Source: Basidiobolus ranarum | Lineage: Eukaryota | Length of the DNA stretch: 32,679 nucleotides | Direction: 5' to 3' | Assembly (NCBI GenBank): GCA_040143965.1 | Contig: JASJQH010006956.1 | Span: forward strand, 1 to 32,679 | In this document: in pieces, positions 1 through 32,274 of the stretch | Position numbering within the stretch: the first letter of the stretch is position 1 | Layout: every line of letters begins with the position of its first letter | The notes under the pieces: generated by a model | What the model was told of the DNA's origin: nothing | The model's input: the letters and a program-made list of their open reading frames with translations, nothing else | Database searches by the model: none | Program-made: the position numbers and the translations under genes

Positions 1-1674
1 GATCACCTGGAGGGGCTCCACCACCGCCTCCACCGCCACCCCCTAATCAGAACGGAAAAGCTCCGACAACTTCCATCAATGGTCTCTCACCCATCAACAC
101 GAATCCGCCACCACCTCCCCCGCCCACAACTGCCACCATCGGAACAAATCAATTTCCAGGGTCACCCACTTCACCCACTTCCAAGCCAATTCCTACGATA
201 CCTATGAGACAAATTTTCTGGAAAAAATTGAGTCCATATCAAACGAAAAATACGATCTGGCACAAAGTAACTTTCGAAGAAGTATTATTGGATACAGTAG
301 AATTAGAAGAGTTATTCTCCAAACCATTAAGTAATAACAAATCTACCACCTCCAATCTGGTCAAATCCCCGAAATTAAACAAAAAACCATTGGCTACTAC
401 ATTATTGGATATCACTAGAGCTAATAATATAGCTATCATGTTGTCAAGGATTAAGGCGACTTATACGGATATTTACAATGCAATTCTGGGAATGGATGAG
501 GTCTTGTTGTCCATCGAAAATCTTAAGGCGATTAAACAACATATACCGCAAAAGGAGGAGTTGGAAATGGTCCGTGCTTATGACGGAGATCCAAAAAATT
601 TGGGAAATGCGGAGAAATACTTTTTGGAGGTGATGCGGCTACCAAGAATGTCCGAGCGTCTTACGTGTATGATTTTCAAGAGAAGATTCGAGTTGGATGT
701 GGAGGAGTTAAAACCTGAGTTGAAGATCTTGTTTGAGGCCATTGCGGAGTTAAAGAAATCCGATCGTCTGTTGATCCTTTTGCATACAGTACTGAATATT
801 GGGAACTTTATGAACGGCAGCTCTTTCCGTGGAAATGCTAGTGGTTACATGTTGGATGCTTTACTGATGTTGAAGGATGTGCGAGCAAAAGATGGAAATA
901 AGAAAGGGATTCCTTCTTTGTTACACTATTTATGTTATCTGCTGCAGGAGAAAAACCCTCAGTTACTGACATTTATGGAGCAGTTGCCACATGTGGAAGC
1001 TGCAGCCAGAGTTTCCGTCCCCTCGGTAGTCAGTACCATTGAGGTTCTTGAGACGGGATTGCAACAAGTGCAGAAGGAAGTGGAGGTACTAACTAAAAGT
1101 AAGATTTCTGACAGCAATGATAAGTTTGTGCCCGTCATGACGGTAAGTGCATCAGATCTTGATAAAATCGGGATGTTTTGAAGATGATTAACATTTGATT
1201 CAAGGAATTTATTCGCTCCGCCGAAGCCACCGTCAAAACCATCTCCGAAATGCGACTTAAACTAGAGAAGGATCTCAACCATATGCTGACCTATTTTGGC
1301 GAGGATCCAAGCACTACTAAACCGGAGGATTTTTTCTCTACCATCGTATCTTTTTCTTCCGCCCTTCAAAAGGCCCATAAAGAGAATGACGAACAGAGGC
1401 AGAAGTCGATGCGTCGTCGGCAAACTCTTCTCAAGAAGGTAGGTTCAGTTATTACGCCATTCTCAATGATATATATTGATCCCGTGTTGTTTAGCCTACT
1501 ACAAATAAGCCACTTATGGGACCCAAAGTCATGGTCCAAGGTGAATTCGATGATGCAATTCGTGAGCTTCGATTTGGAATCAGAAGAAAGAGAAGTGACC
1601 GCCCCAAATCAACAGTTCTTAATGATCTCAATCTACTTGACAGCTTGATCAAAAAGCCATTACATGCTTCTTGA
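1..1674 (+). CDS. Formin (FH1-FH2-DAD), 5'-truncated by the window edge; exons <1-1142, 1205-1438, 1495-1674
   Basis: Frame open from base 3 with polyproline FH1 tracts (PPPPPPPPP, PPPPPPP). FH2 motifs follow (MRQIFWKKL, ANNIAIMLSR, LNIGNFMN, YFGED). Introns 1143-1204 and 1439-1494 (GT..AG) restore frame. The last exon encodes a DAD-like GEFDDAIRELRFGIRRKR and stops at TGA 1672-1674. Confidence 0.95.
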
Positions 1675-2025: not shown

Positions 2026-2032
2026 TATAAAA
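2026..2032 (+). promoter_or_regulatory. Probable TATA box of the heme-thiolate peroxidase gene
   Basis: TATAAAA about 60 bp upstream of ATG 2091, followed by a pyrimidine-rich leader. Confidence 0.5.
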
Positions 2033-2090
2033 TATACTCCCTTCCCCACATCTTTTCAACACTTACTCCCCCCCCAAAAAAAAACGAACC

Positions 2091-2759
2091 ATGTCTCACG
2101 AAAATGAATATCAGAAGCCTGATAGCTCGGCTTCTAGAAGTCCGTGTCCAGCATTAAACGCTCTAGCTAATCATGGTTACTTTCCACGAGATGGTAAGAA
2201 ACTGGACAAAGCGACTATAGAAAGTGGCTTAATTACTGTATACAACCTTGATCCATCATTTGCTGAGTTCCTCACTAACACAGCACTGGAACGCTTGGGG
2301 GTTGAAGATGAAAATGGGAAACTGGTGTTGGAGAGCCTTGAGAAACTAGCAACACATAATGTCATCGAACACGACATTTCTTTGTCTCGACTTGACCATA
2401 GCATTGGCGATAATAATAATGCTAACCCAGAGCTTGTTGAGCAAATCGTTCAGGCTTCAGAAGATGGAGTAAATATAACTTTCGATGATTATGCCAAATT
2501 ACGAAGAGAACGTTACGAACAATGCAAAAATAATCCAGGGTTGACATGGGGATTACAACAAAAGCAAACAGCGTATGGCGAATCCTCATTATTGTTAAAC
2601 GTTTTTGGTAACGGACATACAACCAAGAAAGCTGAAATTGTAACGATCTTCCAACATGAGAAAATCCCTGAAACCTTTGTTAAGCCTAGCTCACCCGTGA
2701 CATTTAATCAGGTACGTTGGACAGCCTTTAAGTTGTTGGTCAAAAATTGGTTTAAATAA
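2091..2759 (+). CDS. Heme-thiolate peroxidase (chloroperoxidase/short unspecific peroxygenase family), 222 aa, intronless
   Basis: RSPCPALNALANHG proximal-Cys (PCP) motif, IEHDISLSR (EHD-S-S) motif and a distal Glu in AYGES; single uninterrupted ORF. Confidence 0.93.
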   Translation: MSHENEYQKPDSSASRSPCPALNALANHGYFPRDGKKLDKATIESGLITVYNLDPSFAEFLTNTALERLGVEDENGKLVLESLEKLATHNVIEHDISLSRLDHSIGDNNNANPELVEQIVQASEDGVNITFDDYAKLRRERYEQCKNNPGLTWGLQQKQTAYGESSLLLNVFGNGHTTKKAEIVTIFQHEKIPETFVKPSSPVTFNQVRWTAFKLLVKNWFK

Positions 2760-21367: not shown

Positions 21368-21710
21368 CTATGGTATCAGGCCTCCTTCTCCATCAATATA
21401 GTAGTTCCAGTCACTAGTGTATACACTACCATCGTCATTGATGCTCTCCACCACCGCAACATGGCCATACAAATCACAACCTTGATAGCCAGGCTGGATA
21501 GCAATGATAGAAGGAATGCGTGGCTCACTGGAGATTACCCAACCCGGAGTGTTCATAGCACTTTCTGGCCAGGTCTTGGCATTGCCCCACCATTGAGTAT
21601 GGTAGCAGGTAAGTTGATAGTAAGGCCAGGGAGCTCACTTTGTAAGTCAGTATTGTTGAATGTTGGAGAGTTAACAGATTTTTCTGAGGCTGGAAGAGTT
21701 TTGGTTTCTT
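21368..21710 (-). pseudogene. CHAP-domain (cysteine/histidine-dependent amidohydrolase/peptidase) gene remnant
   Basis: Minus frame 21634-21368: PWPYYQLTCYHTQWWGNAKTW..GWVISSEPRIPSIIAIQPGYQGCDLYGHVAVVESINDDGSVYTSDWNY, i.e. WGNA and GHVAVVE CHAP motifs. The catalytic GQCT segment is missing, there is an in-frame stop at 21635-21637, and a Ser/Thr/Pro linker lies upstream in another frame. Confidence 0.85.
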
Positions 21711-21774: not shown

Positions 21775-21880
21775 AATCGAGTAGACAAATACACTAATGG
21801 TTTGAAGTGCAATCGAGTAGACAAATACGCTAATGGTTTGAAGTGCAATCGAGTAGACAAATACACTAATGGTTTGAAGT
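21775..21880. repeat. 36-bp head-to-tail tandem repeat, 3 copies (AATCGAGTAGACAAATACACTAATGGTTTGAAGTGC)
   Basis: Units 21775-21810, 21811-21846 (one A>G) and 21847-21880; no spacers. Confidence 0.95.
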
Positions 21881-22400
21881 CGTAACTCGATCCAAGTAAA
21901 ATAAACTCTTAAATTTAGTGATTTTTGGAAATGGTAATTCTTTTCACATGTTTCTTGCTAAATATGTTTACAAAACTGCCACTCGGTGATATAATGCCTA
22001 GCCAGAAAGTCTATCATGAGAGGCTGGACTATAAGAAATCGATAACTGGTTTGCACAGTTAATAACTAAGTAACATTGTTTGTATATAGATCCACAATGC
22101 CATTCAGTACTGCAGTGTTTATTAACTATGCATCATAAATGTAACACTACCGAGAATATAAATCCGAATTAATTAAATCCCGAAACTTGTACCTAGTTGC
22201 TTCTGTAGGGATTGTATCTCGCAAGTCACACCATATTGCGTGAAATTAGTAATAGAATACCAATGTCACAGTACAAATGCTGGATGCTTACAATAGTCAA
22301 CATACCTTGTATATTGAGGTTAGCTCTCATCTCTCGATTGAATACAGATATACCAGATATATAAGCTGGCTTCCATATCCTATTATCTCAACCAACTATC

Positions 22401-22592
22401 ATGAAGTTCTCTGCTCTCCGCGTAATCCTAGCTGTCATTACTTTGACAATTGCTGTTGAAGGCCAAACTGCTTGTAAGGATGCATGCTCCAGTACCACAA
22501 GTGCCTGTTTGTCCAGATGTCAAAAGGGTCAATACAACTGTAACTTATCCTGCATCAGCTATGGCAACTCTTGTCGCGATAGATGCACATAG
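22401..22592 (+). CDS. Small secreted cysteine-rich peptide, copy 1 (63 aa; 21-aa signal plus 42-aa mature peptide with 8 Cys)
   Basis: Signal peptide MKFSALRVILAVITLTIAVEG, eight regularly spaced Cys, TATATAA at 22358-22364, AATAAA downstream, and a conserved paralogue 1 kb away. Confidence 0.9.
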   Translation: MKFSALRVILAVITLTIAVEGQTACKDACSSTTSACLSRCQKGQYNCNLSCISYGNSCRDRCT

Positions 22593-23454
22593 AGTCATAT
22601 CGGTATATAGCTGAAAATAAAACTCACCGTTACTTCGAAAATGTTACATACGAGGTAAATCAACTTACTTGTATTACTATCATATCAGAATTCAATTGAG
22701 TGTTGATAAGTTCAGGCTTATATTCATATGTTCTCAGTTTATGTATTGCAATAAAAGGGGTTATGTTTCAACTCAGAGTCATCTTTGATATAAAAGAATG
22801 CAAGCAAACAACTGTGTTCATTACCCTAACCCTATATTATTTGGCCATAAGTAGCGATATAGTTAGTTGGTTTTATTAGTCCTAATTTTAAACCATACAT
22901 TGCGTTTGATTTGAAGGGTTAGGGAACCTTTGTTGCATTGCTTATTACTTTTCGTACTTAAGCATCAGTTATAAAAGGGCCTTACAACTTGGACTAATAA
23001 AACTTTCCTTTATTGAAGTGTATATATATTGTCCTTCAGCAGCACGAAATGCTCATTATTGTACTACAGATTATGACCTAGCATTTTATTCTCTAATTAG
23101 CCGTTGGGTCAAACATTCTTACACAAAAAACTGGCTTCTCAAGTACCTAGTCTTAGAGTGTAGCATGAGAGGCTAGACTTGAGAAAATATTTCTGAACTA
23201 AGAAATATTGGTTGTTACTGAATCACAATGCCGTTGAGGAATAATCAGTTATTAACAACACAGCATAAATGTAACATTAAGAACATAAATTCTTACTAAT
23301 TGAACTGTACTTTCCTAGTTTCAACAGCGAGCTTCCTTTCCTATTTGTAGTTATACATATGCCCCAACATTCATTATCCCGAGTACCTTGGTACAGATAC
23401 ACCAATATATAAACTGGTACTGACTTCCATATCGTATCATATCAACCACTTATC

Positions 23455-23646
23455 ATGAAGTACTCTCCTCTCCGCGTAATCCTAGCTGTCATTACTGTGG
23501 CCATTGCTGTTGAAGGCCAAGCCGCTTGTAAGGATGCATGCTCCAGTGCCACAAGTGCCTGTTTATCCAGATGTCAAAAGGGTCAATACAACTGTAACTT
23601 ATCCTGCATCAGTTATGGCAACTCTTGTCGCGATAGATGCACATAG
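23455..23646 (+). CDS. Small secreted cysteine-rich peptide, copy 2 (63 aa)
   Basis: 10 nt and 6 aa differences from copy 1, all Cys kept; TATATAAA at 23406-23413. Confidence 0.9.
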   Translation: MKYSPLRVILAVITVAIAVEGQAACKDACSSATSACLSRCQKGQYNCNLSCISYGNSCRDRCT

Positions 23647-24655
23647 AGTCATATCGGTATATAGCTGAAAATAAAGCTCACCAGCACACTGAAAGTGATG
23701 AACTAAAATAGATCACTACCATTATTATGTCATGGCTCAATTATCTTTACGTGAATTCCACTTTCAATTCATTGATGCAATGTGTAGAAAGTATTCATAT
23801 ACTTGTGGGTTGCGAATCATTGCATTCAAGACTTAGTGTAATAGTATCCTTCATTTTAATAAAGGGATCCATATAGCTTTGGTATGGCCATTGTTGAGGG
23901 CTAGATATCCATAATTGAAGTATAATCCACAAGTTCAATATTAAGGTTGCCATGTACACTGTTTACTTAACAGAAATGAGATCAGGATGTGATCATTATC
24001 AAATTGACAGAAACTGTCAGAGGACCAGCAAGATCATGTCCAGTCGTAATTTGTGGGATTAAATTAAGGAATCGTAAAAGTATTTTGAGGATATTCAGCC
24101 AGCTTTATGCCATATAATTCTATTCTATGCAAAACTTATTCTTTGCACTATTGCAACATTATATCACATTCATTATTAGTTAGAATTCTTCTATTTTGTA
24201 TACAGTTTTTAATTGTTAATGTTAATCAAATAAATTCACTCTGCTAATTCGATTATTCCAGTTATAATCCCAGTCAATGAAAAAATCTATCCACTCTTTT
24301 TTGTCTCCATATACGTGTATTCTTGGCTCAGTATGCAAAGCTCTAAAATTTCCATAAATTTCCCTTTCACAAACACCAAGAAGTTACTATATATACTGTA
24401 CCTTTTATAGCATATATAAGTTGCAAATAAACTATTTTATCTCACATCAGCACCATGATAAATTGTTGAACTTGTGCAAAAAGCTACCATATATTCAACC
24501 CAAACATTCCCTTCAAGATTCCCACGTATTTATAGTAGTAGTATTGAATACTTTGGCTGGAATAAATAACACCCCACAGGGTGGTGAAGAATCTAGCATT
24601 GTCAAGCAAAATATCATAAAGACATTGCCTTAGTTTCTCTGAATACAGGGTGAGA

Positions 24656-25638: not shown

Positions 25639-28600
25639 TTAGGCAGATCCCTTGGTTTTACTGCCCTTGGGAACACGGGCTAGCCAGTAGATGAACACCG
25701 CCGCGCCAATATTGAAGACGATGTATACCCACATGAGGCCAAAGTTGCGCCACGCATCCTTGTAGTAGCTAGACACTGAAGCCAGGAAGGTATCAGTTGA
25801 GGAAATGACGCAGAAGGAGCAGCTACCAGTGGCATTTGGGTCTAGCAGGTAGCCACCAGCATAGCTGATGTAGTTGGACATATACTCGCCACAGGTCATG
25901 TTACTTGGGGGATCGAAATGTAGGTACTCGACTGCTTCGCAGACCGCATTGGTACCGGAGACACCTGTCGAGAGCATTGCCGAGACCAGATATGTGAACG
26001 GTGAGACGCGGTACATGAAGATCCAGAATCCGGGTAGGGCTTCGGGAGTAGCGAGGACACCGCAAAAGATCAAGCATAAGGAGAAGAGTAAGTTGGCGAG
26101 ATTACCGCCGGTTTCGGCAAGTTCGATACCTGCGATGACCATATGTGCGAAGGTAGAAGTGAAGAGGAGGAAAGTCAGGATAAGCAGGAACATGAGGACT
26201 CCGCGCTCGCTCACGGCATTAGTGGGCTCAGCATTGTGGTACAGGCCGATGGGATAGTACCAGCAGACAAATATAAGGACCGCCATGAGAGTGTTCCAGG
26301 GAAGTTCAACAACAATATTTGCGGACATAAAGGCTTGCCAGGAGTAGGTCTTAGAGGGTCTCTCACGGACCTCGTACAACGAACGTTGAGTGCAGAAGTG
26401 GGGCATGATTTGTTGGACGAGGTTACCAAAGATGGTCATTAGCATGAAAATACTGAACATCTGGTTCTGAAGACCCTGGAGACTATTCTGTGAGTGGAAG
26501 AAGGAAAATCCGATGTACAAGGAAGTGAAGATGCAGAGAGCCGCCTTGGAGTAAATGTATACAGGGGTACGCCAATATTGCGAAAAGATTCGGACCAAGC
26601 ATTCATACAGCTGAATAGAGAAGGGGGCAGCAAATTCCTTGTAGCTGTCGTGATCGGAGGCAGAGTTTTCGATGGCCTTCTGAGGTAGTGTTAATTTCAG
26701 TTCAGCCAGGTGGTCAAGCACTGCTTTGTATTCAGGGCTATCACGCCAGACAGCAGGCCAGTCAATATCACTGTGGGACCCAGGAGCAGCACCAATAACA
26801 TCCAGCATCCATTCGGCGGGATTCGCATCGTCGGGGAGTTTAGGAGCACCGTTACGCTGGAAGTAGCTGGCAAGGGTGGAAGACTTCTCCCCAATCTCTC
26901 CGAAGTAGACGGTCCTTCCGCCCTTAGCGAGAAAGAGTAAGCGATCGAAACGTTGGAACAACATGGCAGATGGCTGGTGAATAGTGCAGAGGATTGCTTG
27001 ACCATGCTTGGCAAGAGTATCAATCAGATCAAGGATAGACCAAGAAGTCTGACTATCAAGCCCAGAAGTAGGCTCGTCCAGGAAGAGAAGCAGCTGAGGC
27101 TTAGCAGCGAGTTCTACACCAATAGTCAAACGTTTGCGTTGTTCGACGTTGAGACCCTCGCCAGGGACACCTACTACAGCATCGGCATATGATTCCATTC
27201 CTAAAAGCTTGATTACCTCTTCAACGTAGTCAAGCTTCTCTTGGCGAGGGACGTGTGCAGGCTGACGAAGAATGGCACTGAACCGAAGAGCCTCTCTGAC
27301 GGTAGTAGTATAAAGGTGAAGATCTTGCTGCTGTACATAACCTGTTTTTCTCTGGAAGGACTGATCGCGGGGTTTACCGTCAACCAACATCTCACCAGTT
27401 ACAACACCCATTGTAACACGTGTGGCCAAGACATCGAGAAGTGTTGTTTTACCAGCACCCGAAACACCCTGTAGAAGTCAGTAAAATATTAAAATAAAAT
27501 TGAAGGTAAAAGGACTCACCATAAGAGCAGTGCAAGTACCGGGCTTGACCCAACCATCAACATGGTCAAGGATTCGACGGGTCTCGTTCTTGATCTTGAT
27601 GTCGTAACACACATCCTGCCAATGGAAAATTGCCGTTTGTTTCTGGATCTTAGTTGACACTTCACCACCGTTGGAGTCACTTATTTTCTCAACAGAAGCT
27701 TGCTTTGGGTTGGCTTCAATGTCATCGGCATCCTTACCAACAGGCTGATGACCACGACGAAAGAGTAAGACCTCGCCCTTGGACTTGGCCTCCGAGATGT
27801 ATTCAGAAGCAAGTAGATAGGTGCACATAAAGAAGAACAAAAAAGCAAACATGATTCCCAGGTTTCTCCACTTGTGGCTGTTGTAGTAACGGAAGCTTTG
27901 GTGCAAATAGTTGTCTCCCAAAACAATATTGGAGCCAGCAACAGCGCCAACTGTAGAACAAATCTTGTTCTCCGGCGAGGCACTGATGTAGTCACCTCCA
28001 GAAGGAACGAAAACGGAGCATGGGAACGCCCGATCATGGAATTCGTTGACCATAAAACTCTCGAAAGCATACGCGATAGGGTCGATGTAGTTCATCCAGC
28101 GCGACCAGCCAAGCATGTTACGAGTTGGGATAGTGAAACCAGTGTATATGATCAGTCCTAATATAAGGATAGCTGCCGGCACCAAAGCCTGAGAGAGGGT
28201 GCGAGAAGTGGCGGCAATTGTACGAAAGATCATGGACATGGTCAATGTAGTCACAATGGAGAATAATAGGAACACGAAGAATGCACCTGGTTCACGACGA
28301 AGGTTGGTCATGAAGTAAAGCGTAATGTTGAATGTGATGGCATTAAGTAGCTTATATGGCAAGTCACAAATCATGGACGCAATGGCCTCGGCGAACGGAT
28401 GGTACATAGCATAACGAGTATGTTTTTCAACGATTGGACGTTGAACGTACAAGGTCAATATCTCGAGTGCACTAGAGAAAGCGTTAAGAAGGACCGCAAA
28501 GAAAAGCAGGGCACCACGGGAATAGAAACTATTAGTGTCATCGGTCAAATTATAGAAAACACTTCCAACAATCAATGCCATGATGAAGTTGCCGATCAAT

Positions 28601-30293
28601 TGGGTTAGGGTCAAGCTGGCATCGCCTCTCAAACGCTGGAAGCCACGGACAACGCAGAGTTTGACTTGATCCCAGACAGAAATGGTGTAAGGTGACTTGA
28701 CTCGCTGGTTCTTTGCTTGCATCGCCCTACGTGATTCAATGAACCTCTCCACGGATTCTCCACCAATCGGATACTTTTGCTCGTATTCCTCGATTTCCCT
28801 TATCAACTTTGCATAAGCATTACTGTTCTTCCAGGCAGCAGCGAACTCATCGGGCGTATTGGGGACTTGACCCCCGAATCCGGGCTTGACGATACGCTCT
28901 GAGGGGCTGGTAAGAGAGGTCAGGAAATCAGCGGTCGTCTGGCGTTCGGGGCATTCGAATCCCATAGTGGTGAAGAATTCTCTGGCTTCATCTGTACGAC
29001 CAAAATAGATCTGTCGCCCTTCATACAAAACGGTAACTTTATCGAAGACGTCATAGGCACTCTGAGAGGCCTGGTAGATAGCCACGGCGACTGTGGCGCC
29101 AGCATATTTAGACATCAAGTTCAGGGTCTTGCAAAATTCTAAGGCATTGGCACTATCCAAACCTCTGGTACTGTTGTCCCAGCACTGGATGGGGCTGCCA
29201 CTCAGTGCAGCTTCGGCAATACTGACACGCTTCCGCTCACCACCACTGACGCCACGAACGAAATCATTACCAACTTTAGTGTTAATAGTGTGCGAAAGAC
29301 CCAGCATGGCCATGACGACGTCTCTCATGTGCTCCGCATACTGTTGCCTAGTAACTCCGGGAAGACGATTGCGGGGGGCTCGGGCAAGAGCCGCGAATGT
29401 GAGGGTGTCTCCAACGGACAATTGTGGAAAATGGACATCAGTCTCTGCTGTGTATATGGCTTCACCACGGAATTGGTCTTTCATCTGTTTGACAGAGATA
29501 CCTGGATTCTTTTAGTTACGAGCAGCTAAAAATTGCTCACAGAGAAAACATACCTTGATAGTTGATGTGGGATTTCTCATCCAGGTGAATACCGTTCATC
29601 TCACCGGCAATGGTCTTGAGGAAGGTTGAGCAACCACTGGGGAGAGTTAATTTTGCGAGATTCAGAGTATAAACCAATGATTACATACCTGCCAGGTCGA
29701 CCCAGGACAACGAGCATCTCTCCGCTCTTGACGAGACCGTCGAAGTTATGAAGAATCTGAATCTTCTGCTTACCAGTACCAGTAATTGAACGGAAAAGGG
29801 TGCCGATCTCTAGAACAGAATTGGCAACATCTTTCTGATAATCCGTGGGACTACCGTAACCATGAACGCTGAGATTCTTGAAACACACACCTGCAGTTCG
29901 TTTAGGATATCTTTCTGGGTCCCGCGATTGAATGGTCAACAAGTTCTTCATCCAATTCTTGGGCTTAAAATTGGGATCATTAGGATTCAATGTCGAATCC
30001 TCATTCGATCCGATGAATGGGTTTTCAACCAGGTTATCAATAGAATATCTGGTTGACTGGCGGGTCAACTGACGTGCCAGACGAGTAACCTCCCCTAGAA
30101 TGATCTCTTCGCCTAGTACTTTTTCTGACTTATCGAAAACCGTATCGGCAGTGCACAGGCTGGAATCCAGTTCATGGGAGAAGTTATCCGAGTGCTGTTG
30201 TGATGCGTATTCCTCCACAGGCTGGTGGGCACCTTGGCCCCTGACAGTGCGTTCTACGTTCAAATTGGAATTAATCGTCCCTAACAGAGACAT
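25639..30293 (-). CDS. Full-size PDR/ABCG multidrug efflux transporter, 1499 aa, AbcG1/Cdr1B(AbcC)-like; exons 30293-29689, 29636-29554, 29501-27520, 27468-25639
   Basis: NBD1 has [22 protein letters not shown] and QCWDN; NBD2 has [24 protein letters not shown] and [12 protein letters not shown]; two 6-TM domains with PDR extracellular loops. Three 51-52 nt GT..AG introns give a 4500-nt intact CDS. Confidence 0.97.
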
Positions 30294-30317
30294 CGTTAAA
30301 GAGCGTAAAACGTTAGG

Positions 30318-30373
30318 CTTAAATTACTGAGTTAATGATGGGCTCCTTAAATTACTGAGTAAATGATGCGCTT
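30318..30373. repeat. 28-bp tandem duplication in the ABC transporter 5' leader
   Basis: CTTAAATTACTGAGTTAATGATGGGCTC followed directly by CTTAAATTACTGAGTAAATGATGCGCTT. Confidence 0.9.
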
Positions 30374-30380
30374 CAGGAGT

Positions 30381-30391
30381 ATATATAATAT
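30381..30391 (-). promoter_or_regulatory. Probable TATA box of the ABC transporter
   Basis: Minus-strand TATTATATATA about 90 bp upstream of ATG 30293. Confidence 0.5.
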
Positions 30392-30657
30392 ATTCGTCAG
30401 ATCCCTGAAAATCACGAAAAGCGATATGCCAAAAATTGAGGTCTGTAGATAACAAAGCCGAGTCATAAATGAAATTATCTCGACGCATTTGATTGGCTGA
30501 AGAAGGAAAAATGGGATTTCTGGAGCGTGAAAAACTGCAAAAATCGATTCTGTGTAGGATATTCGGACCCGAAATGCAAAAATTCATTGTAAATGTCTGT
30601 GTCGGCTGTACATATCCGCTTCCATGATTGTTACTGGAGTAGTTCTTAGGAGGTCTG

Positions 30658-30733
30658 ACAGAGTGGGCCAACAAATGCTAGAGACGAATACCACAGAGTG
30701 GGTCAACAAATGCCAGAGACGAATGTCACAGAG
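30658..30733. repeat. 35-bp tandem duplication in the ABC transporter promoter
   Basis: ACAGAGTGGGYCAACAAATGCYAGAGACGAATRYC at 30658-30692 and 30693-30727, plus a partial ACAGAG. Confidence 0.9.
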
Positions 30734-30811
30734 CAGAGAGCACTGTCATAGAATCAATTCCAAAATTACATGTGGATTTGAGTCACTTCCCCAAATCTTC
30801 ACACCGGAATA

Positions 30812-30873
30812 CGCTAAATCCTAGATTATCCGCTAAATTCTAGATTATCCGCTAAATTCTAGATTACCCGCTA
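30812..30873. repeat. 19-bp tandem repeat x3 in the ABC transporter promoter
   Basis: CGCTAAATYCTAGATTAYC at 30812, 30831 and 30850, plus a partial CGCTA. Confidence 0.92.
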
Positions 30874-31370
30874 TGGGTTGTAACACTCATTAAATCACGT
30901 GGATTCATTGTCCGAAGATCAAAATAAGTGCGCATTATTTAGCTTTAAACTTTAGCTACGTGGAGAAATTTGATGGCATTTTTGATTTTACTGATTATAC
31001 TAAGCTATATGAGAGTATCCAATCATGTGCAATGGAGGTTTGCTTTGATTTGTGCCTAAATGTTATGCTATATTTTAGGAACATTGAATTTCATTCACTT
31101 TCATTATGCATGTGACTAATTCAAATATCACATCGTGGCTACCCTACGTTTATAAGTCGTTTATCCCTATGTTCAAGATAAGATCACCACTTGATATATA
31201 TGTTAAACATCCTGGAATTGCCAAGTAGAGTTAGAAATGTTAAACTAGTATTACTGGCATCAAAAGTAGCTCATTTCACTTTTACTGATGCTCTGAACAC
31301 AACCCCTTTTGTGGCTTGGAAAATAATTACAATATTTGCAATCACAATTCTTCCCCATCTGCTAGAAATC

Positions 31371-31699
31371 AGCCTGTTGGAAGTGGTGTGAGAAATCAAG
31401 AAATTGGTGCTTTTCACATATTGATTTATTGAGTAGAAAGTTGACTTATCTAGTTTTGCCAAGGTATAAACAAACTAGCATGCTGAATGTGTTTAAGAAG
31501 ATCCCAAGAGCATGCGCAAAGTTTGGGGCTTATAGCACAGGTTTGAAAAATCTGTATATTTGAGAACTTCTAAGTTGTTAGAAATATTAGAACTAAGTTC
31601 CAATTAGGAATAATGGATAATTTCTTGGTGAGATATAGTATAGCTTAGTACTCAGCTATATATAACCATGTAGGTGCTTAGGCAATGGTAATATCAACC
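31371..31699 (+). repeat. Dispersed ~300-bp repeat, copy B (more diverged)
   Basis: Shares AGCCTGTTG.AAGTGG, GAAATTGGTG, ACAAACTAGC, AGTTTGGGGCTT and ATGTAGGTG.TTAGG.AATG blocks colinearly with copy A. Confidence 0.82.
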
Positions 31700-32034
31700 C
31701 TCTCCCTCACCCAAATCGTCATATAAACTAATCTTAAGGAAGATCTATAAATATCAAATTTTGCCAAGCTAATAGTTTGGCAAATATATCAGCAATCATG
31801 TTTTCTGTAGAATAATAAGTTGAGTCATCAAATTTATCTTCTATAGTCTCTTTAATAAAATGATGTCTAATATCTCTATGTTGGCTAGTAGTATATAACA
31901 TTGGATTTCCACTTATGTTGATACTGTTACTAAGAGGATCTTGACATAATGGGGGTAGACTGTGTATATTGGAGGTTACTTATGATATTGCTTTTAGCTA
32001 CTTTATTATTAAGAGAATATGTTGCCCTGTTTAG

Positions 32035-32274
32035 TATGTTAAAGTATTTGGGAGCCTGTTGGAAGTGGCTTGGAGAATTAGAGAAATTGGTGGTTTTCAC
32101 TTATTGAATTATTTAGTAAAAGGTTGACATTTATAGTTTTGTCATGATATAAACAAACTAACATGTGGCATCTGTTAAGGAAGGTCCCAGAAGCATGTGT
32201 GCAAAGTTAGAGGCTTCTAGCATAAGTTTGAAAAATCTATATTTCTGAAATTTCCAAGTTAGTATCAATATTCT
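32035..32274 (+). repeat. Dispersed repeat, copy C, truncated by an LTR insertion at 32275
   Basis: Near-identical start to copy A; homology fades by about 32270, just before TGTTGA. Confidence 0.85.

Follow-up and report, generated by a model that had tools for sequence, protein, structure and literature searches.

Here we describe a complete gene for a PDR-type multidrug transporter in Basidiobolus ranarum, a fungus outside the Dikarya, whose protein resembles the AbcC pump of Aspergillus fumigatus. The window analysed is a whole contig of 32,679 bp, and the gene occupies positions 25639-30293 on its minus strand, from an ATG at 30293 to a TAA stop at 25641-25639. An initial annotation, made from the letters alone, had proposed a complete PDR transporter of 1499 codons at this place and had read it as a candidate for transfer between fungi. 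The gene model bears out the first part of that proposal: four exons and three introns (52, 52 and 51 nt) give a spliced translation of 1499 residues that equals, letter for letter, the deposited protein P0001, 'Multidrug resistance protein [Basidiobolus ranarum]', and the Pfam architecture fits the family. The parts of the gene are as follows (in the motifs, a slash marks the intron).

29689..30293, minus strand: exon 1; N-terminal extension, ABC_trans_N (Pfam E 1.5e-27) and the start of the first nucleotide-binding domain (NBD1); ends 2 nt into codon 202
29637..29688, minus strand: intron 1; 52 nt, GTATGT..CAG, phase 2, in the Ser codon of the deviant Walker A motif GRPG/SGCST
29554..29636, minus strand: exon 2; 83 nt
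29502..29553, minus strand: intron 2; 52 nt, GTATGT..CAG, phase 1, in Gly230 (NYQ-G/ISV)
27520..29501, minus strand: exon 3; remainder of NBD1, first transmembrane domain (TMD1), PDR_CDR loop and start of NBD2; Pfam ABC_tran, ABC2_membrane (E 1.2e-50) and PDR_CDR (E 4e-35)
27469..27519, minus strand: intron 3; 51 nt, GTGAGT..CAG, phase 0, directly before the Walker A motif of NBD2
25639..27468, minus strand: exon 4; NBD2 and TMD2, stop TAA; Pfam ABC_tran and ABC2_membrane (E 3.1e-45)

The domains follow one another as ABC_trans_N, ABC_tran, ABC2_membrane, PDR_CDR, ABC_tran and ABC2_membrane (matched in exons 1, 3 and 4), and this is the hallmark of PDR transporters, namely the reverse order NBD1-TMD1-NBD2-TMD2 accompanied by ABC_trans_N and PDR_CDR regions. 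The nucleotide sites are asymmetric, a mark of the family known from Pdr5 and Cdr1: NBD1 carries a deviant Walker A motif, with Cys in place of Lys, next to a canonical signature, and NBD2 a canonical Walker A motif next to the deviant signature LNVEQRKR. All the nucleotide-binding motifs stand in invariant columns of the full-length alignment. Furthermore, the protein matches solved structures of Candida albicans Cdr1 and Saccharomyces cerevisiae Pdr5 over its full length (query residues ~65-1496; Cdr1 9iuk_A 1680.6 bits, 9s2c 1632 bits, Pdr5 7p03_A 1604.1 bits) and has their reverse (NBD-TMD)x2 layout.

Similarity and phylogenetic placement

When exon 3 was used as the query, the best 120 of 7151 matches began with the query itself, followed by the protein of Basidiobolus meristosporus (92%), by Eurotiomycetes (named rows at 73-83%, and some rows without a name within the same limits), by one Leotiomycete, a basidiomycete yeast (60%) and the CDR1 of the budding yeast Spathaspora (52%). 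Among these best 120 no early-diverging fungus besides Basidiobolus appears, and no named Eurotiales protein among the matches listed exceeds 83% to the pump, B. meristosporus being the closest. A full-length comparison gives 91% identity with P0003, the B. meristosporus protein, and 77-82% with 10 Eurotiales proteins; Cdr1 and Pdr5, in contrast, are more distant and belong to another orthologue group. With A. fumigatus AbcC (also named Cdr1B and AbcG1), it shares 1228/1501 positions (82%), the motifs of the N-terminal extension being aligned as well, and the resemblance of the N-terminus that the initial annotation had put forward is thus recovered by alignment. The UniProt entry of this protein, ABCC_ASPFU, is contained in the 90% cluster of P0005.

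Every tree that was built nests the pump in the Aspergillaceae. In a FastTree of 119 rows, the two Basidiobolus proteins form a pair (support 100) within a 73-row Aspergillaceae clade (99). With IQ-TREE under LG+G4, the pair (100/100, ultrafast bootstrap/SH-aLRT) falls within a 19-row Aspergillaceae AbcC clade (99/99) in a tree of 38 rows, and again (100/100) within a 12-row Aspergillaceae clade (100/99) in a tree of 33 rows with closer outgroups, which were nine metagenome PDR proteins and two basidiomycete yeasts; a quick tree of the 33 rows with posterior mean site frequencies (LG+C20+F+G4 PMSF) gives the pair 100 and the same placement in the 12-row clade, with a support of 97. In all of them the pump belongs to the orthologue clade of A. 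fumigatus AbcC, separate from the Cdr4-type paralogue clade. The 33-row tree is otherwise in the order of the species, with the Onygenales, then Thermoascus, Rasamsonia and Paecilomyces together with the paralogue clade, and then the Aspergillaceae. The initial annotation had suggested a Eurotiales-like donor, to be examined by a protein search and a maximum-likelihood phylogeny of the pump and of its neighbours; for the pump both agree with it, and in the protein search the neighbouring VPS13 and formin (see below) match Basidiobolus best and then other early-diverging fungi.

Some rows of these datasets deserve a comment of their own. The Spathaspora 'CDR1' model (P0002, 2998 aa) looks like two tandem PDR genes fused by annotation, and this fused row was omitted from the 119-row FastTree. 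Besides, three proteins take odd positions (P0114, P0096 and P0089): an Aspergillus granulosus paralogue has as its sister (100/100) a protein of the Leotiomycete Rutstroemia, the Aspergillus Cdr4-type clade contains one from Malbranchea (Onygenales), and a Penicillium herquei protein is paired with one of Aspergillus violaceofuscus. Either these records may be contaminated, or the PDR family, with Leotiomycete and Onygenales proteins inside Aspergillus paralogue clades, may be repeatedly mobile and have been exchanged among fungi on more than one occasion.

Introns, composition and genomic surroundings

According to the initial annotation, the gene came as DNA with its three introns retained, and this was examined in 80 related loci from a metagenome scan. 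Nearest to the pump are two Penicillium-like loci: L001, placed with P. cinerascens in the tree, has no intron across residues 1-1490, and L040, 95-99% identical to P. citrinum, has a single intron near residue 578, as does its duplicate L041. The comparison with Eurotiales orthologues, run on these two loci, therefore finds none of the three introns in either. Among the other loci, the position and phase of intron 1 (phase 2, Ser202) are identical in the metagenome PDR loci L036 and L075, and intron 2 (phase 1, Gly230) has an exact match in nine loci checked at the nucleotide level, including L030. An automated tally of junctions over the 80 loci gave 1, 10 and 0 at positions 202, 230 and 890; it overlooked L075 and L030, both of which were recognised by eye. 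The position of intron 3 (890) is uninterrupted in all 80. Retention is thus supported only in part, by introns 1 and 2, whose positions recur in other ascomycete-like PDR genes, and not for intron 3.

The loci that share introns with the pump reach just 59-69% identity with any named row and hence fall outside the Eurotiomycete clade. Positions 202 and 230 would be old in the PDR family and could have arrived with the donor DNA, and introns 1 and 2, whose positions are common to other PDR genes, fit a transfer as genomic DNA; intron 3 may have been gained later. It should be considered that some of the intronless loci may be transcript assemblies. As for the host, the introns of VPS13 measure 52-74 nt (median 61), with 13 TAG, 5 CAG and 2 AAG acceptors, and those of the pump measure 51-52 nt with a CAG acceptor in three of three, a sample too small to be weighed against that of VPS13.

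In turn, the base composition distinguishes the gene from the remainder of the contig. The GC content in 1-kb windows is 0.46-0.50 across the pump versus 0.32-0.43 elsewhere, and the coding sequence reaches 0.47-0.50 versus 0.40-0.43 in the host exons and 0.34-0.37 in the pump flanks, confirming that the pump is GC-richer than the genes around it, as first noticed from spot counts. A comparison of codon usage with the host exons of the contig points the same way. The GC content at third codon positions (GC3) is 0.49, 0.53 and 0.56 in the pump exons and 0.36-0.51 in six host exon blocks (VPS13 0.39), and the codon fractions of the pump correlate with those of the host blocks with an r of just 0.55. 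With respect to the two Penicillium orthologues (GC3 of 0.54 for L040 and 0.66 for L001), the pump has a lower GC3 and, in addition, three short introns that neither of them has. This composition fits a foreign gene in part ameliorated, as supportive and not decisive evidence, because a highly expressed native gene could have a similar bias towards C-ending codons.

The second Basidiobolus copy is informative about the age of the gene. The two pumps differ at 132/1480 aligned sites, concentrated in the N-terminus and the linkers, with 64% identity in the first 100 residues and 95-98% in the NBDs, and have 49 substitutions in common at sites where A. fumigatus equals Penicilliopsis. Such a pattern is the one expected of a single acquisition followed by purifying selection. 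That a 91%-identical copy is present in the independently assembled B. meristosporus speaks against contamination and favours one old acquisition.

The other features of the contig on which the argument depends are:

3..1648, plus strand: formin; FH2 domain (Pfam E 4e-79), truncated by the contig end
6017..16481, plus strand: VPS13; 21 exons and 20 introns of 52-74 nt, exact mapping of the 3073-aa protein P0121
24656..24852, plus strand: LTR-like (long terminal repeat) repeat copy, ~0.8 kb beyond the 3' end of the pump
30294..30900, minus strand: upstream region of the pump; AT-rich, of host-like composition, with tandem repeats at 30318-30372, 30658-30733 and 30812-30873
31390-31563 and 32035-32246, strand not assigned: two more copies of the LTR-like repeat, bracketing a short open reading frame (ORF) at 31734-31979 (minus strand)

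The pump is linked to VPS13 and formin on the deposited contig. It lies 2.4 kb from the contig end, and ~4-6 kb of AT-rich, repeat-bearing DNA separate it from the nearest recognisable genes. The best relative of VPS13 is that of B. meristosporus, with 42% identity for the VAB region and 46% for the whole protein, followed by Dimargaris (34%) and Umbelopsis (32%), and ascomycetes reach just 31-33%. The FH2 region of the formin gives 82% with B. meristosporus, 42-51% with Glomeromycotina, 44-47% with Mortierellomycotina and near 40% with basidiomycetes, and no named ascomycete occurs among its 88 matches. Being nearest to B. meristosporus and then to early-diverging fungi, both neighbours are, as judged by these similarities, Basidiobolus genes rather than Eurotiomycete genes, as the initial annotation had held for the surroundings of the pump; it had named Eurotiomycete flanking genes as what would speak against a transfer, and VPS13 and formin point to Basidiobolus instead. 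The 20 introns it had counted in VPS13 are those given by the exact protein mapping. The site-2 protease that it had listed among the neighbours is present as an M50/site-2-protease Pfam match, and this match is weak, since its 24.5 bits fall short of the Pfam cut-off of 27.2. Between it and the formin lies an ORF of the Peroxidase_2 (heme-thiolate peroxidase) family (2031-2759, plus strand, Pfam E 8e-52).

A difference between the two neighbours was also observed, since the identity to the best B. meristosporus counterpart is 46% for VPS13 (compared with P0122) and 82% for the FH2 region of the formin. This suggests paralogues, or an orthologue missing from the database, and the VPS13 pair of the two species is probably paralogous.

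The flanks of the pump are AT-rich and carry LTR-like direct repeats and a probable copia relic, in line with the AT-rich repeat debris initially described. The repeat at 24656-24852 matches that at 32035-32246 with identities of 96% (over 76 nt) and 80% (over 124 nt), and the ORF at 31734-31979 is similar to the C-terminus of a copia-type polyprotein; an Atlas feature search of it returned 'Copia protein family' at 0.92, a lead only, and a Pfam search of the relic returned no retroelement family. The segment 31390-32246 is probably a decayed LTR retroelement. Retrotransposition of the pump inside such an element was considered and rejected, because the gene keeps its introns and sits outside the LTR-pol-LTR remnant. 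Likewise, a co-transfer of flanking DNA was rejected: blastn similarity to the Penicillium loci spans 30026-25661 only, inside the coding sequence, the upstream region 30294-30900 has no DNA similarity to the flanks of the Penicillium orthologues, and the flanks of the Penicillium loci have a GC content of 0.48-0.53 versus 0.34-0.37 for those of the pump. The tandem duplications upstream of the pump (units of 28, 35 and 19 nt) lie within 600 bp of its start codon.

Origin of the pump and what it may mean

Altogether, it is well supported that Basidiobolus acquired the pump from a mould of the Aspergillaceae lineage by horizontal transfer from fungus to fungus. The gene would descend from the AbcC/Cdr1B/AbcG1 orthologue of such a mould, one that branched at the base of the family or close to it, and would have entered Basidiobolus, presumably as genomic DNA, before the split between B. 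ranarum and B. meristosporus. After the transfer, the coding sequence would have been kept intact and conserved while its base composition drifted part-way towards that of the host, and the gene would now reside in AT-rich, retroelement-littered host DNA, presumably expressed from a host-like promoter.

Several observations weigh against this account. The preference of the pump for C-ending codons could equally reflect high expression, and the Penicillium-like orthologues L001 and L040 are without any of its three introns. In the 38-row tree, the Basidiobolus pair, Penicilliopsis zonata and Aspergillus plus Penicillium (98/97) form a three-way fork with no branching order. Moreover, the trees hold no native zygomycete PDR rows; these were sought by a representative search and a cluster look-up, and the 10 representatives examined were all Dikarya. 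An approximately unbiased (AU) test in which 33 Pezizomycotina rows were held together with Basidiobolus outside, and the outgroups were three distant rows (Rhodosporidiobolus, Rhodotorula and S. pombe Bfr1), did not reject that arrangement (dlnL 20.7, p 0.0725), and the groups of the AU tests were set by taxonomy, yet after a tree had been seen. Furthermore, the B. meristosporus homologues of the pump, formin and VPS13 are on three different scaffolds (88,317 bp, the one with ORX90944.1, 117,348 bp and 151,761 bp, respectively) and therefore give no synteny support, and no repeat connects the flanks of the pump with the host part (1-19.5 kb) of the contig. Finally, the 46% identity of VPS13 between the species implies paralogy, or a species split deeper than the 82% of the formin suggests.

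The first AU test would leave a place for the vertical inheritance of an unusually conserved ancient PDR gene, or for a reverse transfer from Basidiobolus to the Aspergillaceae. We infer that its p value is explained by the long outgroup branch (S. pombe 3.81), cheaply re-attachable beside Basidiobolus; because long outgroup branches are cheap to move to that position, the test was repeated with the nine closer metagenome PDR proteins, and keeping the 20 named Pezizomycotina rows in one group then cost a dlnL of 56.3 and was rejected (p 0.00997). The branch-path distances agree with this second test, as the pump lies closer to Aspergillus udagawae and Penicilliopsis (paths of 0.36-0.42) than those moulds do to the Onygenales rows of the same tree, and the basidiomycete yeasts are far more distant. 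In addition, the clade that includes the pump is nested within the Eurotiales in species-tree order, and the neighbouring host genes diverge from ascomycetes as deeply as expected, so that we regard both of these histories as extremely improbable. The placement of the gene near a contig end, beyond kilobases of repeat-bearing DNA and with no internal repeat that joins its flanks to the host part, is what could be expected if the pump of a contaminating Eurotiales mould had been mis-joined to Basidiobolus DNA. Such an assembly artefact is very unlikely in view of the copy in the independent assembly of B. meristosporus CBS 931.73, which is closer to the pump than any named Eurotiales protein among the matches listed, and of the low GC content of both flanks, unlike that of the Penicillium flanks, the end of the DNA similarity to the Penicillium orthologues within the coding sequence, and a GC3 intermediate between the values of host and donor.

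There is, in turn, some small chance that more than one event was involved, i.e., that the two Basidiobolus species acquired the pump separately from related donors, or that it passed later from one to the other. The pump is more similar between the species (91%) than the formin FH2 region or the best VPS13 pair, and the scattered scaffolds would also suit this history. Nevertheless, a single event is favoured by the 49 derived substitutions in common and by the length of the stem branch (0.10-0.12). PDR pumps evolve slowly, with Aspergillus and Penicillium orthologues at ~77-82% to the pump, so that 91% next to a formin at 82% is unremarkable and fits vertical descent within the genus, and the VPS13 pair is perhaps one of paralogues. 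The horizontal acquisition from an Aspergillaceae-lineage mould, once and before the two species diverged, is thus the history we prefer. It would also provide a relative time marker, later than the split of the Aspergillaceae from the other Eurotiales and earlier than that of B. ranarum and B. meristosporus.

Regarding function, the protein would be a full-size PDR (ABCG-type) efflux pump of the plasma membrane with the (NBD-TMD)x2 layout. By analogy with its family, ATP would be hydrolysed at the single canonical composite site, formed by the Walker A motif of NBD2 and the signature of NBD1, and the hydrolysis would drive the export of hydrophobic xenobiotics, azoles plausibly among them, from the membrane. 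In A. fumigatus, the abcC/cdr1B (abcG1) gene is described as that of a main azole efflux pump, activated by AtrR and required for normal voriconazole susceptibility (PMC11288021). The Basidiobolus pump is alike in its identity along the full length, its Pfam architecture and its orthologue clade, and can be considered by analogy a putative xenobiotic efflux pump, possibly handling azoles; unlike AbcC, it resides in a non-Dikarya fungus and in AT-rich DNA. The sequence CGGN12CCG, which we take to be the AtrR-type binding motif, is absent upstream of the pump, its sole occurrence in the window, at 745, being at chance level. With an upstream region that is host-like and without this motif, the regulation of the pump in Basidiobolus would, as far as the sequence indicates, differ from that in A. 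fumigatus, and the host may be without AtrR.

Basidiobolus is an opportunistic human pathogen, and basidiobolomycosis is treated with azoles. Very high azole minimal inhibitory concentrations are reported for B. omanensis (PMC8400364), and they stand beside the pump as context only. That the pump is a working determinant of azole or xenobiotic tolerance in Basidiobolus, and part of a wider gene flow from Eurotiales to Basidiobolus in dung, gut and soil, is a tentative idea that we hold to be rather doubtful; if true, drug pumps of clinical relevance can pass from one fungal phylum to another by gene transfer.

The gene transfers described so far in Basidiobolus have bacterial donors, with foreign genes lying among fungal genes on common scaffolds, according to Tabima et al. 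2020 (PMC7466969), whose main text contains neither 'ABC transporter' nor 'Eurotiales' (0 occurrences of each). The recipient genus is the same, but those donors are bacterial, most of the genes are without introns and their GC content is no different from that of other genes on the same scaffold (PMC7466969), whereas the pump is intron-bearing, GC-richer than its neighbours and of Dikarya origin. A clear transfer from Dikarya to a zygomycete of an intact, intron-bearing drug-pump gene of 4.6 kb would represent a route from another donor kingdom. The literature search, with subscription journals largely outside it and supplements not covered, found no report of this transfer; a survey of family expansions mentions ABC transporters in general terms only, and a timetree paper of 2025 mentions Basidiobolus only for its phylogenetic placement.

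Some minor features are found on the host side of the pump. The CHAP gene of the initial annotation was detected by Pfam as a bacterial-type CHAP-domain ORF (21368-21634, minus strand, E 8.3e-13), ~4 kb from the pump, and could be a bacterial acquisition given the known gains of bacterial genes in Basidiobolus. A 278-nt duplication (22366-22643 and 23420-23697) has its two copies 1054 bp apart at 91% identity, each of them encoding a Cys-rich ORF of 75-77 aa, with no Pfam match, that starts with a signal-peptide-like stretch. Lastly, a 36-nt unit repeated 2.9 times at 97% identity (21775-21880) adjoins the CHAP ORF.

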